Source: Dictyostelium discoideum | Lineage: Eukaryota | Length of the DNA: 64,000 bases | Direction: 5' to 3' | Assembly: GCA_000004695.1 (NCBI GenBank) | Contig: CM000151.3 | Coordinates: forward strand, 8,000,001-8,064,000 | Shown here: in pieces, positions 4,661 to 60,701 of the stretch | Position numbering within the stretch: position 1 is the stretch's first letter | Layout of the letters: each line of letters starts with the position of its first letter | Notes under the pieces: generated by a model | What the model was told of the DNA's origin: nothing | The model's database searches: none | What the model saw: only the letters and a program-made list of their open reading frames with translations | Made by a program: the position numbers and the translations under genes

Positions 4661-4927
4661 CTTGATATTATTAAAATAATATAATTTTAAAATAAAAAAA
4701 TTTAAAATAAAAAAAACAAAATAAAAAATAAAAAATAAAAAAATAAAATTCACCATCACTAAATAATCTCTTTCTTTTAAAACTTTATCTTTTTTTTTTT
4801 TTTTTATTTTAATTTTTGGGATTACCCTCTTTTCTCTAATATCAACTTTAACATAATCCCTTTTCTTTTTTTAAATAAATAATATTTTTATTTTTAATTT
4901 TTTTTTTTTTAAAAATAAATTAAAAAT

Positions 4928-32834: not shown

Positions 32835-33990
32835 AATTATTACTAATATATTTATTAATATATTTATTATTTATTTTAATATTTTATAGGAAGGATTTGA
32901 TCATGTTACATTTTGGGTTGGTAATGCATTACAAGCAGCAACTTATTACATTGCTAGATTTGGATTTCAAAATTTAGCTTATAGTGGTTTAGAAACTGGT
33001 AATCGTCAATTCGCCACTCATGTTATCCATCAAAACAACATTATTATGGCTTTTACATCACCATTAACTGGTGACAACAAAGATTATGCAGACCACATGA
33101 TGAGACATGGTGATGGTGTCAAAGATATTGCTTTCAACGTTAAAGATGTACAACACATTTATGATGAAGCAGTTAAAGCAGGAGCTCAATCAGTTAAAGA
33201 ACCACATCAAATTAAAGACGAACATGGTATTGTTACATTAGCAACTATCATGAGTCCATATGGTGAAACTACACATACTTTTGTTGATAGATCTCAATAT
33301 AAAGGTGCATTCTTACCAGGTTTCACATACAAGGTCGCTTCAGATCCATTATCAAATATCACCGAACCAGTTGGCCTCAACTTAATAGATCATGTCGTTT
33401 CAAATCATGCAGATAAAATGATGGAACCAGTCGTTCAATGGTACGAAAAGGTTTTACAATTCCACCGTTTCTGGTCAGTTGATGACAAAACCATTCATAC
33501 CGAATATTCATCATTAAGATCAGTCGTAGTTGCTGATAAGTCTGAAAAAGTTAAATTACCAATTAATGAACCAGCCAATGGTATTAGAAAGAGTCAAATT
33601 CAAGAATACGTAGATTTCTACAATGGTGCTGGTGTTCAACATATCGCCTTAAAGACTGATAACATCATTGATGCTATCTCAAAATTAAGATCTCGTGGTG
33701 TCTCTTTCCTCACTGTTCCAAAAACATACTATACATCACTCAGAGAGAAATTACAACACTCTTCATTAGAAATTAAAGAAGATTTGGACACTTTAGAGAA
33801 ATTACACATTTTAATCGATTATGATGACAAAGGTTATCTTTTACAAATCTTTACAAATAATGTTGAAGATAAACCAACTGTTTTCTTTGAAATTATCCAA
33901 AGAAACAACCATGATGGTTTCGGTGCTGGTAACTTTAAATCCCTCTTTGAAGCAATCGAAAGACAACAAGAAACTCGTGGAAACTTATAG
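32217..33990 (+). CDS. hpd: 4-hydroxyphenylpyruvate dioxygenase; join(32217..32219,32890..33990)
   Basis: Exon 2 aligns along its full length with 4HPPD: EGFDHVTFWVGNALQAATYYIARFGFQNLAYSGLETGNRQFATHVI ... HGDGVKDIAFNV ... LQFHRFWSVDDKTIHTEYSSLRSVVVA ... QIQEYVDFYNGAGVQHIALKTDNI ... LLQIFT ... IQRNNHDGFGAGNFKSLFEAIE. The in-frame ORF is open upstream to an acceptor tatag at 32888-89. The only upstream ATG in splice context is aaacaATG|gtaagt at 32217, so exon 1 is just ATG (phase 0). The model gives 367 codons, consistent with the family length. Confidence 0.75.
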
Positions 33991-34297
33991 GTGTGTCTCA
34001 ATTACAAATGTTCTTTATTATTAACTAAATAACATTACAATATATCAAAATAAATAATAAATAAATACTCTATTTAAAAAGTAATTTTTTAATAGTAAAC
34101 AAATTAAAAAAAAAAAAAAAAACAAAAAATTATCTCCTTTAAACATTTTAATTTCTTCTTTATTTATAAACAATGTGTTACAAATTATTACAACCCCAAT
34201 TTCAACATATTATTGAATTATAAGTTGGATTGGACACTTTAGAGAAATTACACATTTTAATAAGTTATAATATTTTATTAATTATTTATTTGTTTAT

Positions 34298-35225: not shown

Positions 35226-35894
35226 TTTAAAAGTTTTTTTTTTATTAATATTGAAATATTATTTAGTTTAAGGTTTTTGTTTTGAATTATTTGGTAATAA
35301 AAAAAAAAAAAAAAAAATATTCACATTTTTATACTTAAAAAATAGAAAAAAATTAGATTAAAAAAATCCAGAAATATTTAAAAATATTAAATAAAAAATA
35401 TAATTATGAATTTTAAGAATGTAATTGGAATAGTTTTTTTTTTTTTTTAAAAAAATATCTTGTTTTTTTGTTTTAAAAAAAAAAAAAATATTTTAATTTG
35501 TATTTTTTTATTTTTTTTTTTTTTTTTTGGATCGGGTATCTTTAAAAAAAAAAAAAATTGATAATAAGATAATTTTTAAATTTTAATTTATTTTGTTACG
35601 AAATGAATTAAATTCATTATATATATAAATGTGTATTTTTTTTTTTTTTATTATTTATTTTAATTATTTGAATATAATGAGTTTAAAATAAACTATGGTT
35701 TGCCATATCGAAGTTTATTAAAAAATAAAAAAAGACTTAAAAAATTAAATTTGAAAAATAATAAAAAATAATAACAATTCCGTCCATTCAATTAAAAAAA
35801 AAAAAAAGATATGAATAGATATAGATAATTTAAAAAACTAAATTAAAATGTGAAATTTTATTTTTAAATGATTAATTTAAATTATTTTCTTTTA

Positions 35895-36000
35895 TCTAGA
35901 AATTGTCCAAAGAAACAATCATGATGGTTTCGGTGGTTGTAACTATAAGTCTCTCTTTGAGAAAATCGAGGAAAGTTATAATAAATTACAATCATGGTCT
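35895..36000 (+). pseudogene. degenerate duplicated fragment of the hpd 3' end (last about 35 codons plus 3' flank continuing to about 36090)
   Basis: 35897-36090 (gaaattgtccaaagaaacaatcatgatggtttcggtggttgtaactataagtctctctttgag...aatactctatttaaaaataattttttaatagtaaac) is a diverged, frameshifted copy of hpd 33890-34090 (gaaattatccaaagaaacaaccatgatggtttcggtgctggtaactttaaatccctctttgaa...aatactctatttaaaaagtaattttttaatagtaaac). Confidence 0.8.
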
Positions 36001-36178
36001 CAATTACAAAAGTTCCTTATTATTGGTTGAATATCAATATAAATTAATACTCTATTTAAAAATAATTTTTTAATAGTAAACTAACAAAAAAAAAATCAAA
36101 AAACAATCACCTTTTTATACTTTTAATTTCTTCTTTATTTTTTAACAATGTGTTTAATAATATTAGTAGCTTTTTTAT

Positions 36179-37106: not shown

Positions 37107-37398
37107 TTTAAAAGTTTTTTTTTTATTAATATTAAAATATTATTTATTAGTTTAAGGTTTTTGTTTTGAATTATTTGATAATAAAAAAAAAAAAAAAAAA
37201 ATTTACATTTTTATACTTATGAAATTAGAAAAAAAATAGATTAAAATCCAGAAATATTTAAAAATATCAAAAAAAACAAATAAAATTATTAATTTTAAGA
37301 ATGTAATTGGAATGGTTTTATTTTTTTTTTACACTTATAAATTAGAAAAAAAATAGATTTGAAAATATCTAGATTTTTTTTTTTTTTTTTTTTTTTGG

Positions 37399-37429
<31 letters not shown>

Positions 37430-37542
37430 AATATCTTAATTTGTTTTATTTTTTTTTTTTTTTTTTTTTTTTTTGGGTTGGTGTGCTTTAAAAAAAACAA
37501 AAAATAACAATGAAAAAAATAAACTCTTTTTGGGTTGAGGTG

Positions 37543-37579
<37 letters not shown>

Positions 37580-37640
37580 TGAACAGATAATTTCAAACAC
37601 TAAATTAAAATATGAAATTTTATTTTTTAAATGTTTAATT

Positions 37641-38672
37641 TCAATTATTTCTTTTTTCTAAATTAATTTTAAATTCGTTTGGTTTAAAAGAGAAACCAAA
37701 TATAGGTTTATCACAAATCTTTGAATTTTCAATTAAAGGTAATAGCTTAAAGTTTAAAACAAGGTTTGAAAGTGAAATGTATAATTCATCTTGAGAGAAA
37801 CCCATACCAATACAATTTTTAACACCAATTCCATATGGAAAATAATTATTTGAATGAGAATCTTGATCAAGGAATCTCTCTGGTTTAAATTGGTCAGGTG
37901 AATCCCAATAGTTTTCATCTCTAAATATTGAATAAAGTGATTGAATGATTTGAGTACCTTTTGGAATTTTCAAAGATCCACCATTAATTTCAAATGATTG
38001 ATTTACTTGACGAGGTACACCAAATGGTACAGGTGGATATAATCTCAAAACTTCTTTTAAAGCTGCATTAAATAATGGTGTTTGATTTCTATTTGAAAGT
38101 TTAATCATCGCTGTTGTCGTTTCCAATGTTGATTTTAATTCATTATAAATTTTATCTTGATAATCAAGATTATTTACCATTGTTAAAATGAACCATTCAG
38201 CAGTACTTGAATTTGTTTCTGTGCCAGCTAAAATTAATTCATTTACCATTGGGATGATTGAACTTTGTTCTTCTTTACCACCAACTTTTCTATATTCAAT
38301 AATCAATGAATCCAAAACATCTCTTGCATTATTTAAATCAATTGATTCAGAATGTTCTAAATAATATTTTGTTAAAATCTTTTTCAAAGAATCTGCTGGA
38401 TGACCAAACATTTTTAAATATAAAAAATAGAATGGTTTTGTAAATATTAAATAATTTACAATTAATGTATCTGCTAAATAATCAAATAATTCTCTAATTG
38501 CTAATAAAACTTTTCCTTGTTCTTCATTTACACCTTCATAAATATTTTCAATACGTCTTGAAAATACATAATCAAAAATAATATTTGAATAAAAGTTCAT
38601 AAAATTTGATCTTGGTGAAAACTTTTAAAAAAAAAAAAAAAAAAAATTAATAAACCAAGTAATGTTTTTAAC

Positions 38673-47222: not shown

Positions 47223-47663
47223 TATTTGATTTTTTTTTTTAAGAATTTCAAAAGGAAGAGTTTGAAAAATTCATTATCGATTTCACAAATAATAAAATTT
47301 CAGTCCAATTTTTACAATTAAAATTTTTTATTTATTATTTTTCAATTTTTAGATTAGAGGTAATAAAAATAAAATAAAATAAAATAAAAAAAAAATTAAA
47401 ATTAAAATTAAAAAAAAAAAACAAGATATTTTCATTGGTTAAAAAAAAAAAATATCTTTTTTATTAAAAAAAAAAAAAAAACATTCCAACTACATTCTTA
47501 AAAATAATAATTTTATTTTTTTAAATATTTCCAATTCTAAATCTATTTTATTTCTATTATTATTTTTTTTATTTTATTTTTTATAAGTATAAAATGTAAA
47601 TTTTTTTTTTTTTTTTCCAATCAATTCAACAAACTTTAAACTAATCAATACAATAAATTAAAA

Positions 47664-48590
47664 ATGCCTCTCGCTTTAACTTCAAGGTAAAAAAAAAAAA
47701 AAAAAAAAAATTATAATTCATTTAGTGGTTAATAATTTAAAATTACTAATTTAAATTAAATTTATTTAATTTATAGAAAATCATTAAAAGATAATGAAGA
47801 ATCTTTAAAAACTAATTTAGCATCAATTGAAAAATCATTGGGTGAACCATTTTCAATTGAATTTGATTTTGAAGATATTATTACTAAATGTAATGATTCA
47901 TGGGTTACTAATAGTTGTGGAAGTATCTTTTATAAAGATGTAGTTGGTAATCTTGCAAAGAATATGGTAAAAGTCGGTGCAGATTCATTAATTAAAGAAG
48001 CATTTTTAGCAGCTGTTCCAAATAAGAAATTTGTTTTTGTTTGTGCTGATGAAAAGTTGGAATCCTATTGGAAATATCAATTTGAGAATGGTGATTGTAG
48101 AATTTTATTCCGTCCAAAGATTTGTAACACTAATGATGTTAACACATTCAAATTAGAGACAATCATTCCATCTCAAGGTGTTTATACTTTAATGACTCGT
48201 TTAAATATTAAAACAAATGAACAAAAAATGAAAGATAATTTATCAGCAGTTAAAAAAGCATTAAAATCATCATCAGATTGGTCAATTGATGAATTATCAT
48301 TAGAAACTGTTTATCCAAAAGTTGCCGACGACTTAAAGAATAGCTTTGGTCATATCTTTGCTGGTATCGTCGAAAAGGTCGCTGCAAATCTCGCCAAACG
48401 TTGTGCTGATGAAATGATCTTAGAAGCAGTTCAAGAAGCAACTACAAATCATACAATCGTTATTAAACATGATGCTAACTTGAACGCTCATTGGTCATGG
48501 TCATTTGAATCTGGTAATATCGTTATCACTTTCAAATCTGTAACCAATACTAACGATGTTCAAACATTTGATTTCATTAAATTATTATAA
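47664..48590 (+). CDS. uncharacterised two-domain protein family, copy C; join(47664..47686,47777..48590)
   Basis: Exon 1 ATGCCTCTCGCTTTAACTTCAAG|gtaaaa has synonymous changes relative to the other copies. Acceptor ttatag at 47775-76. Residues DSLIKE, IIPSQG, IDELSLE. Confidence 0.8.
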
Positions 48591-49270
48591 ATAAATAAAA
48601 AAAGCTATTAATATTATTAAACACATTGTTAAGAAATAAAAAAGAAATTAAAAAGTATTAAAAGGTGATTGTTTGTTGATTTTTTATTTGTTTATTTATT
48701 GTTTATCATTTAAAAATTAATTTAGTGTTTTAAATTATCAATTTCTATTCATATCTTTTTTTTTTTTCTCATTTAACTGAATGGATGGAATTGTTATTAT
48801 TTTTCAAATTTATTTTTTAAAGTCTTTTTTTATTTTTAATAAACTTCGATATGTTAAACTATTTTTTATTTTAAACCGTTTAATACAAATAATTATAATA
48901 AATAATTGAAATATATAACAAAATAAATTAAAATTAAAGATTAAATTCTATTGTCAATTTTTTAAAAAGAGTGTATAATAATAAAAAAAATAGTATAGAT
49001 AAAATATTAAGTAGATATGTGATTATCTATTTTTTTTTTTTTTTCATTTGGAAATTTAGACAATTCAAACACTATGTTATTCATACATCAAAAATTAAGA
49101 TATTATTTTAGTTTTATTTTTTATTTTTTTTTATTTTTTATTTTTTTTAACGATACCCCTATAAAAAAAAAAAAAAAATAAAAAAAAAAAAAATAAGATA
49201 TTTTTAAAAAAAAAAAAAAAATAAAAAAAAACAAGTCCAGATATTTTTTTTTAAAAAAAAAAAAAAAAAA

Positions 49271-49388
49271 TCATTCCAATTACATTCTTGAAATTAATAA
49301 TTTTATTTTTTATCTAATATTTTTAAATATTTCTGGATTTTTAATCTATTTTTTTTCTATTTTTATAAGTATAAAAATGTAAATATTT
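49271..49388 (+). promoter_or_regulatory. conserved promoter module shared by the five-copy family, representative copy D; equivalents at 47481..47600 (C), 50995..51110 (E), 35322..35432 (A, minus strand) and 37204..37317 (B, minus strand)
   Basis: Near-identical blocks lie 80-200 bp upstream of each ATG: TCATTCCAATTACATTCTT(G/A)AAA(T/A)TAATAATTTTATTTT, then ...TTTAAATATTTCTGGATTTTTAATCTATTTTTTTTCTATTTTTATAAGTATAAAA(A)TG(T/G)AAAT. Conservation is far above the surrounding poly-A/T spacer. Confidence 0.5.
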
Positions 49389-49468
49389 TTTTTTTTATTA
49401 TTATCAAATAATTCAAAACAAAAACCTTAAACTAATAATATTTAAATATTAATAAAAAAACATTTAAA

Positions 49469-49496
49469 ATGCCTCTCGCCTTAACCTCAAGGTAAG

Positions 49497-49527
<31 letters not shown>

Positions 49528-50399
49528 GCTTCATTTAATAATTAATATAAATTTTAATTAATAATTTAATTTATTTTATTTTTAGAAAATCATTAAAAGA
49601 TAATGAAGAATCTTTAAAAACTAATTTAGCATCAATTGAAAAATCATTGGGTGAACCATTTTCAATTGAATTTGATTTTGAAGATATTATTACTAAATGT
49701 AACGATTCATGGGTTACTAATAGTTGTGGAAGTATCTTTTATAAAGATGTAGTTGGTAATCTTGCAAAGAATATGGTAAAAGTCGGTGCAGATTCATTAA
49801 TTAAAGAAGCATTTTTAGCAGCTGTTCCAAATAAGAAATTCGTTTTTGTTTGTGCTGATGAAAAGTTGGAATCCTATTGGAAATATCAATTTGAGAATGG
49901 TGATTGTAGAATTTTATTCCGTCCAAAGATTTGTAACACAAATGATGTTAACACATTCAAATTAGAAACAATCATTCCATCTCAAGGTGTTTATACTTTA
50001 ATGACTCGTTTAAATATTAAAACAAATGAACAAAAAATGAAAGATAATTTATCAGCAGTTAAAAAAGCATTAAAATCATCATCAGATTGGTCAATTGATG
50101 AATCATCATTAGAAACTGTTTATCCAAAAGTTGCTGACGACTTAAAGAATAGTTTTGGTCATATCTTTGCTGGTATCGTCGAAAAGGTCGCTGCAAATCT
50201 CGCCAAACGTTGTGCTGATGAAATGATCTTAGAAGCAGTTCAAGAAGCAACTACAAATCATACAATCGTAATTAAACATGATGCTAACTTGAATGCTCAT
50301 TGGTCATGGTCATTTGAATCTGGTAATATCGTTATCACTTTCAAATCTGTAACCAATACTAACGATGTTCAAACATTTGATTTCATTAAATTATTATAA
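49469..50399 (+). CDS. uncharacterised two-domain protein family, copy D; join(49469..49491,49586..50399)
   Basis: Exon 1 is 23 nt then gtaaga. Acceptor tttag at 49584-85. Residues DSLIKE, IIPSQG, IDESSLE. Confidence 0.8.
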
Positions 50400-51192
50400 A
50401 TAAACAAAAAAAGCTATTAATAATTAAAACACATTGTTAAAAAATAAAGAATAAATTAAGTATAAAAAGGTGATTGTTTGTTGATTTTTTTTTATTTGTT
50501 TTTTATTGTTCAAAGTCTTTTTTTTTAATAATAATCGATATGTTAAACTATTTTTTATTTTAAACTCCTTTAAATACAAATAATAAAAATAAATAATTTT
50601 ATCCAAAAAAAAAAAAGAAAAAAAAATGAATTATAATTCATTGTGTAACAAAATAAATTAAAATTAAAAATAATATCTTATTATTATATTTTAAAAAAGA
50701 GTGTATAATAGATAAAAAACTAAAAAAAGTATTGATAAAATATTAAGTAGATTATCTTTTTTTTTTTTTTTTTTTTTTTCTTTTTGAAATTAAGATAATT
50801 CAAACACTATTTATTCATTACATCAAGTATTATAAAGAATTAAAAGATATCATTATATTTTTCTTTTTTTTTTTTTTTAACGATACCCCTATCCAAAAAA
50901 AAATAAAAAATAAAAAAAAAAAAACAAAAAAAAATAAAAAATAAAAAAAAAATAATATAAAAACCAAAATCCAGATATTTTTTATAAAAAAAAATCATTC
51001 CAATTACATTCTTAAAATTAATTATTTTATTTGTTATTTAATATTTTTAAATATTTCTGGATTTTTAATCTATTTTTTTTCTATTTTTATAAGTATAAAA
51101 TGGAAATTTTTTTTTTTTTAATTATCAAATAATTCAAAACAAAACAAACTAATAAATAATATTTTAATAATAATAAAAAAAAAACTCTTAAA

Positions 51193-52659: not shown

Positions 52660-60701
<8,042 letters not shown>

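Follow-up and report, generated by a model that had tools for sequence, protein, structure and literature searches.

A probable RNA polymerase II promoter copied with each member of a dictyostelid-specific gene family in Dictyostelium discoideum

A 64-kb window of chromosome 2 of Dictyostelium discoideum AX4 (contig CM000151.3, positions 8,000,001 to 8,064,000; G+C 22%) carries five near-identical two-exon gene copies, A to E, each preceded by a similar non-coding block that is the subject of this study. Exact-sequence look-up gave the gene identifiers listed in Table 1. Every copy encodes a 278-aa protein from two exons, 23 nt (MPLALTS-) and 814 nt long, that are separated by an intron of 90-94 nt. 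No Pfam domain was found in the family protein, and its homologues are almost all dictyostelid, coming from D. citrinum, D. dimigraforme, D. purpureum (78%) and Acytostelium (40%); the sole homologue outside named dictyostelids is a 42% match from metagenome contigs. A full-text literature search with six family identifiers (A-E and the chromosome-3 paralogue DDB_G0281617) returned no papers.

Two motifs upstream of these genes had been described in an initial annotation as a module of about 130 bp retained in all five units. The first, box 1 (CATTCCAAYTACATTCTTAAAA), occurs at exactly five sites in the window with 0-1 mismatches, compared with 0.03 predicted from shuffles; the distance from a site to the ATGCCTCTCGC start codon downstream of it is 182-208 nt in all five copies. 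Exact matches to the second, a 55-mer, are confined to D (49322-49376) and E (51046-51100). The closest sequence in B departs by 3 edits, that in A by 4 and that in C by at least 12 of 55; in C, TTCCAAT stands in place of TTCTGGA and about 20 extra T-rich bases precede the TATA box. Box 1 and both ends of the second motif are retained by all five units; the middle of the second motif is not, having diverged in C. The motifs lie in A and B as the reverse complement, as described, and the stretch from box 1 to the TATA box measures 105-113 bp.

The short words within the module had also been taken for unusual G/C-containing islands. The module has a G+C content of 10-13%, against 12-13% in the rest of the spacers, and is thus no G/C island; across 193 kb of Dictyostelium DNA, a good part of which is genic, TTCTGGA has 15 further occurrences and CATTCCAA has 17. 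TTCTGGA is not a conserved core either, with orthologues and paralogues showing TTCTGAA, TTCTTGA, TTCTTAT or TTCCAAT at this place. Since the word varies among relatives, its G/G is not the constrained part; the conserved parts are AAATATTTCT and AATCT-T8-CTA.

Evidence for constraint comes from related loci. Family loci were fetched from D. dimigraforme (L001, L007, L010), D. citrinum (L005, L006, L009), D. purpureum (L002) and elsewhere in D. discoideum (L003, L004); a second D. purpureum paralogue (P0024, L011) was left out, its gene model being chimeric or partial and lacking a family start that could be recognised. The gene order P450, Ank, FNIP (divergent) and family gene is common to copy C, L006 and L001, which makes these two loci syntenic with C. 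Three-way identity of C, L006 and L001 reaches 76% in box 2a and box 2b (AAATATTTCTGAAT...CAAATCTAATTT.TTTCT) and 88% in the TATA box (AGTATAAAATGTAA), compared with 33% far upstream, 31% in the 5′ untranslated region (5′UTR), 39% in the intron, 25% in the 3′ flank and 3% in the segment between box 1 and box 2. When 835 non-coding windows of 20 columns were ranked, box 2b, the TATA box and box 2a took the top three places. Set against unalignable flanks, the only conserved non-coding blocks are box 2a (AAATATTTCTGRAT), box 2b (AATCTWTTTTTTTTCTA) and the TATA box (AGTATAAAA) with its T-run, together with box 1 in one subfamily only; D. citrinum keeps box 1 as CATTCCAAATACATTCTT. The left end of L006 holds the promoter of a family copy just after the P450 gene, a position like that of copy B, and between these two promoters only box 1 (~19/20) and box 2 align across ~380-430 nt. 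These comparisons indicate that purifying selection acts on box 2a, box 2b and the TATA box in D. discoideum, D. citrinum and D. dimigraforme alike.

Conserved boxes could be mimicked if non-repetitive stretches such as CATTCCAATTACATTC mutated more slowly than homopolymer and microsatellite runs, which in DNA this rich in A and T are quickly altered by slippage. Most differences between the units are indeed length changes in A or T runs, and the 1-2/22 substitutions that separate box 1 of C from the other copies are not significantly below the ~15% intron rate in our own binomial estimate. However, the 5′UTR after the leader and the intron (31-39% three-way) and the segment between box 1 and box 2 are equally complex and are not conserved, and box 2b, itself a T8 run, has kept its length and flanks in most promoters. 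Mutational cold spots are quite improbable as the explanation.

The arrangement of these elements was compared in 19 family promoters from 10 sequence sources (the window and nine fetched loci) and four species, anchored on the start of the TATA box (Table 1). The order, namely AGATATTTT-type element, box 1, box 2a, box 2b, TATA box and leader, is the same throughout except in the D. purpureum copy, which has a TATA box match only. Box 2a and box 2b are offset by 17-20 nt, start to start, in every promoter with both. Type II promoters (L003 7031, belonging to the chromosome-3 paralogue, the L005, L007, L009 and L010 copies, and L001 14235) keep AAAATATCTATTTTTCAAATTATTTCT...CAAATCTWT8CTAATTT. 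Type II paralogues, with ~91% protein identity and unrelated flanks, carry the shared elements in unchanged order. No type was assigned to the second chromosome-3 promoter, L003 5001, in which neither box 1 nor box 2a was matched. Within the 193 kb, known family promoters hold 7 of 8 matches to the box 1 core and 8 of 9 to box 2a, and the one match left over for each lies in a further family promoter, cut off by the end of L006. Family promoters contain 2.62 copies of AGATATTTT per kb; AT-rich control DNA contains 0.10. An unbiased 8-mer screen of ten diverged promoters placed GTATAAAA, AATCATTC, AGTATAAA, AATATTTC and AAAATATC at the top.

Box 2b and the T-rich DNA around it might alternatively serve mainly as a generic nucleosome-excluding poly-T tract and not be bound by a sequence-specific factor, leaving only the TATA box and T-run as truly specific, and a tract of this kind would suit the variable spacing, 25 to 65 nt, between box 2b and the TATA box. 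A generic tract needs neither the non-T flanks AATCT and CTA nor the fixed offset from box 2a, yet both are kept across subfamilies and species, and we assign this account a low probability.

The core of the block follows the known geometry of the species. Chang et al. 2012 (PMC3371697) place TATAAA(A/T)(A/T), after Kimmel and Firtel 1983, ~29 bp upstream of the start site in D. discoideum, within or ahead of a sense-strand poly-T tract whose 3′ end lies ~2 bp upstream of that site. All five copies carry GTATAAAA on the sense strand, in agreement with this sequence, and T-runs of 11-19 nt that end +26 to +35 from the TATA start. The end of the second motif, previously given as TATAAGTATAAAA(A)TG, is thus a TATA box followed by a T-run, and the ATG there is not a start codon. 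The family shares with the canonical D. discoideum core promoter a sense-strand TATA box, a downstream T-run and upstream A/T tracts; it differs in an extended TATA context (AGTATAAAA, often then ATGTAA) and a conserved leader CAAATMATTCAA, its start site being a predicted one.

An ATG after the TATA box is present in every copy, which could be taken to indicate that the module is transcribed, as a long 5′UTR, an upstream non-coding RNA or a small open reading frame (ORF), and is conserved for an RNA or peptide function. Read from this ATG, four copies (A-D) stop straight after Met and E encodes a 10-aa peptide, and no Rfam match was found in the whole window at the gathering threshold. The TATA and T-run geometry also puts the predicted transcription start downstream of the module and of this ATG; the real start codon follows the TATA box by 74-111 nt. 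A transcribed module is very improbable.

We conclude, with a probability of about 0.72, that the repeated block is the RNA polymerase II promoter of this dictyostelid-specific gene family, copied with the gene at each segment duplication. It is an ordinary kind of gene-family promoter, real and partly constrained. In its arrangement, AGATATTTT/AAAATATCT elements, one or two in number and of either orientation, lie 5′-most, followed by box 1 (CATTCCAAYTACATTCTT) in the chromosome-2 subfamily (type I), by a composite proximal element of box 2a and box 2b, by the TATA box, (A)GTATAAAA, with its run of T, and by the start of the leader. Transcription would begin just after the T-run, ~28-37 nt from the TATA start. 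Sequence-specific factors on box 2, box 1 and AGATATTTT may set the timing and level of expression, so that each copy would be expressed on its own under the same programme; co-regulation of the copies is plausible. The one support for the co-regulated, dosage-multiplied expression suggested in the initial annotation is published proteomics, in which DDB_G0277423 has its peak at aggregation. The view of the motifs as candidate cis-regulatory elements stands insofar as the block is the promoter of each copy, with parts constrained across species and an order fixed in 19 promoters; conservation within the window is no evidence for it. Box 1 had been ascribed to the whole family and proves to be confined to the chromosome-2 type I subfamily.

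Several observations weigh against this reading. The module in A, B, D and E (substitution level 0.037-0.075) is no better conserved than synonymous sites (0.006-0.082) or the 5′UTR (0.021-0.068), and lies only somewhat below the intron (0.044-0.112), so these four copies add no independent evidence. Contrast within the window comes from copy C alone, which compares with the others at 91-95% identity in box 1 and 92-100% in the TATA box, against 65-72% between these two elements, 61-67% in the 5′UTR and 72-75% in the intron. This contrast is weak evidence for constraint, because the few substitutions in box 1 are not unusual and because homology of C with D and E starts, by self-BLAST, only 10-25 nt upstream of box 1; the prominence of box 1 in C could thus partly reflect a duplication boundary. 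Beyond the window, type II promoters lack box 1, D. dimigraforme has it in degenerate form (~14/22 counted by eye, 42-47% in the alignment), and D. purpureum clearly keeps only the TATA context AAGTATAAAATGG. Of the top words in the 8-mer screen only the first two or three, GTATAAAA and AATCATTC among them, survive rough multiple-test correction. Counts such as the 15/20 promoters with AGATATTTT overstate independence, since many of the fetched promoters are recent paralogues. Finally, the six family identifiers are absent from four supplementary files on the factor GtaC (PMC4506546), although multi-copy genes are often left out of analyses of this kind.

The promoter reading must also be set against pure youth or homogenisation, in which recent duplication or gene conversion keeps the module alike with no selection on any part. 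Equal conservation across the whole spacer had been named beforehand as the sign of such youth, and this is largely what the window presents: the module diverges like neutral sites, and over their full length the C-D and D-E spacers are homologous, with 69% identity when indels are counted and, apart from the module, several blocks of 90-100%. Pieces of hpd and of the P450 flank were co-duplicated into the spacers, and gene conversion is active, with exon 2 of B and D differing at 2/814 nt against ~5% in the intron, UTRs and promoter. Given neutral-like divergence and spacers homologous throughout, function and youth cannot be told apart from the window by itself. In D. citrinum and D. dimigraforme, however, the orthologues retain boxes 2a and 2b as well as the TATA box (D. 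citrinum also box 1) where introns, UTRs and other intergenic DNA are unalignable, and the type II paralogues retain the shared order despite their unrelated flanks. It is these orthologous and paralogous promoters, from the two other species and from other D. discoideum loci, that resolve selection versus youth, and youth alone is improbable. The methodological point is that conservation among recent paralogues does not show function; orthologues were needed here.

With the block read as a promoter, its upstream elements may be compared with known binding sites. The AAAATATCT/AGATATTTT 9-mer contains a GATA core and is identical to the plant evening element. That element is bound in plants by CCA1/LHY/RVE single-Myb SHAQKYF factors; the likeness of AGATATTTT to it and to GATA sites is one of sequence only. 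Dictyostelia have large Myb/SANT and GATA factor families (PMC6873476), and GtaC prefers GATC in vitro (PMC4506546). A literature search for the AGATATTT word in Dictyostelium gave nothing relevant. A more specific proposal, that AGATATTTT and the fixed-spacing pair of box 2a and box 2b form a new group-4 dictyostelid cis-regulatory unit, read by Myb (SHAQKYF-type) or GATA factors and driving aggregation-stage expression of a protein family specific to this lineage, seems rather unlikely.

Box 1 can be written CATTCC-AATTA-CATTCT, that is, two CATTCY words 11 bp apart, and the D. citrinum variant CATTCT fits the consensus. CATTCY is the consensus site of the TEA/ATTS family (TEAD, AbaA, Tec1). 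Table 1 of PMC6873476 counts TEA/ATTS/TEF with the transcription factor families that were not found in Dictyostelia, so that box 1 cannot act through TEA/ATTS, and this candidate was rejected in spite of the matching words. Comparison with known Dictyostelium CA-rich elements (CAE) and G-boxes, proposed at the outset, also led to rejection: no CACCC, CACAC, GGGTG, GTGTG or similar pentamer is present in the module of any copy, and ACCCC or CACCC words occur only far upstream, in B, D and E. The GBF-bound elements are likewise short G/C-containing islands in AT-rich promoters of developmentally regulated genes.

The family protein is made and developmentally regulated. Mass spectrometry places DDB_G0277423 (D) among the top proteins peaking at aggregation, with a logFC of 6.56 (PMC12821622 Table S7), and DDB_G0277415 (A) was apparently detected mainly from aggregation to culmination, the column order being inferred and not taken from a header (PMC12821622). 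Since peptides are common to the copies, these values are not assignable per copy. The expression table of Kin et al. 2018 includes DDB_G0271254 only, with low values of 0.05-5.8 in columns that were not decoded. For this uncharacterised, developmentally regulated family, box 2a, box 2b, box 1 and AGATATTTT form a set of candidate cis-elements filtered by cross-species comparison. They are a modest addition to the short list of defined Dictyostelium promoter elements and leave the general picture unchanged.

The spacers record how the copies arose. The D-E spacer shares with the C-D spacer the 3′UTR and the blocks GAGTGTATAAT, TATTAAGTAGAT, AATTCAAACACTAT and AACGATACCCCTAT. The B-A spacer contains a decayed hpd 3′ end (35770-36165 versus 33749-34190, 314/451 identical) and a copy of the P450 3′ flank (35794-35887 versus 37560-37650, 83/95 identical), and another P450 3′ flank copy lies in the C-D spacer at 48708-48767. 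These pieces indicate that the duplicated unit was larger than the promoter and extended from the P450 flank across promoter and gene as far as the end of hpd; the promoter would simply have been carried along inside it, in tandem or inverted. The inter-unit spacers are mosaic, with variants common to A and E and to B and D, and this pairing suggests an inverted segmental duplication of a two-gene block. Whole-window self-BLAST was dominated by low-complexity matches and was informative only for unit-to-unit lines.

The coding sequence of C is 98-99% identical to those of A, B, D and E and only 91-92% identical to the syntenic D. citrinum and D. dimigraforme orthologues, and its promoter and 5′UTR resemble those orthologues more than the neighbouring copies. 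Together with the B-D comparison, this points to gene conversion confined to the coding region, including between inverted copies ~12 kb apart. Copy C appears to keep an older version of the promoter, with promoter and coding sequence perhaps evolving separately. Members of multi-copy Dictyostelium families such as actin and discoidin I carry similar 5′ flanks. In those families, likewise, tandem and dispersed copies each have their own similar promoter and independent expression is possible; A-E would differ from them in the homogenisation of their coding sequences by gene conversion and in the older promoter of C.

Table 1. Gene copies, promoter elements and inter-unit spacers in the window, and element positions in the 19 family promoters relative to the TATA start
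Feature	Position	Strand	Basis or remark
Gene copy A (DDB_G0277415), 278 aa	34298..35225	-	ORF and exact protein look-up
Gene copy B (DDB_G0277417), 278 aa	36179..37106	-	ORF and exact protein look-up
Gene copy C (DDB_G0277425), 278 aa	47664..48590	+	protein exact match; exon 1 23 nt, intron 90 nt, exon 2 814 nt
Gene copy D (DDB_G0277423), 278 aa	49469..50399	+	exact protein look-up
Gene copy E (DDB_G0277421), 278 aa	51193..52121	+	exact protein look-up
Promoter of copy A	35282..35460	-	element mapping
A, AGATATTT	35453-35460	-	
A, box 1	35411-35432	-	TATTCC..., 1 mismatch
A, box 2a	35368-35379	-	
A, box 2b	35343-35359	-	
A, TATA	35327-35334	-	
A, T-run	35299-35317	-	
A, leader	35282-35294	-	
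Promoter of copy B	37166..37370	-	with extra upstream partial box 2b and TATA-like sequence
B, AGATATTT	37363-37370	-	
B, extra box 2b	37343-37359	-	
B, box 1	37293-37314	-	
B, box 2a	37248-37259	-	
B, box 2b	37226-37242	-	
B, TATA	37209-37216	-	
B, T-run	37183-37201	-	
B, leader	37166-37178	-	
Promoter of copy C	47424..47629	+	element mapping
C, AGATATTT/AAATATCT	47424-47431 and 47450-47457	+	
C, box 1	47482-47503	+	
C, box 2a	47523-47534	+	diverged (AAATATTTCCAA)
C, box 2b	47540-47556	+	
C, TATA	47587-47594	+	GTATAAAA
C, T-run	47601-47616	+	
C, leader	47617-47629	+	CCAATCAATTCAA
Promoter of copy D	49196..49416	+	element mapping
D, AGATATTT	49196-49203 and 49239-49246	+	
D, box 1	49272-49293	+	
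D, box 2a	49325-49336	+	
D, box 2b	49343-49359	+	
D, TATA	49369-49376	+	
D, T-run	49386-49396	+	
D, leader	49404-49416	+	TCAAATAATTCAA
Promoter of copy E	50973..51137	+	element mapping
E, AGATATTT	50973-50980	+	
E, box 1	50996-51017	+	
E, box 2a	51049-51060	+	
E, box 2b	51067-51083	+	
E, TATA	51093-51100	+	
E, T-run	51107-51119	+	
E, leader	51125-51137	+	
B-A inter-unit spacer	35461..36178	-	decayed hpd 3′ end and P450 3′ flank copies
C-D inter-unit spacer, upstream of D promoter	48591..49195	+	homologous along its length to D-E spacer
D-E inter-unit spacer, upstream of E promoter	50400..50972	+	homologous to C-D spacer
Family promoters, AGATATTT/AAATATCT	-94 to -220		relative to TATA start; one outlier copy at -320
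Family promoters, box 1	-97 to -117		relative to TATA start; type I only (window A-E, L004, L006)
Family promoters, box 2a	-43 to -84		relative to TATA start
Family promoters, box 2b	-25 to -65		relative to TATA start
Family promoters, [AG]TATAAA	0		all 19 promoters
Family promoters, T-run			after TATA box
Family promoters, leader AATMATTCAA	+29 to +48		relative to TATA start
Family promoters, ATG start codon	+74 to +111		relative to TATA start

Further sequence features lie beside the promoters. Copy B has an extra box 2b and a TATA-like sequence (ATAAGTGTAAAA) just 5′ of box 1 (37343-37375, minus strand), and the DDB_G0271254-like promoter in L004 has a complete extra box 2 upstream of box 1 (4727-4790); this material indicates that the promoter module itself was partly duplicated in tandem. 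Between the P450 stop codon and the B promoter (37395-37546, minus strand) are three spaced repeats of the form T-run-AAAGCAC(C/A)...ACCCAAAA-A-run. Related islands, AACGATACCCCTAT and AAAGATACCCGATCC, precede box 1 by ~110 nt in D, E and A, and these islands and repeats resemble CA-rich or DUSE-like words.

Upstream of C (47424-47457), AAGATATTTT and AAAATATCTT form an inverted pair whose starts are 26 nt apart. The pair could serve either gene, since the 441-bp intergenic region is common to C and the divergent FNIP-repeat gene (start codon 47222). A similar inverted pair is found upstream of a 46%-identical homologue (L008, about 4671-4720). Elsewhere in the window, a large minus-strand ORF (55567..60024) contains long, perfectly periodic 3-nt repeats at 56121-58438 (self-BLAST, 100% identity at 3-nt shifts), which probably encode homopolymeric amino-acid tracts, a frequent feature of Dictyostelium genes.

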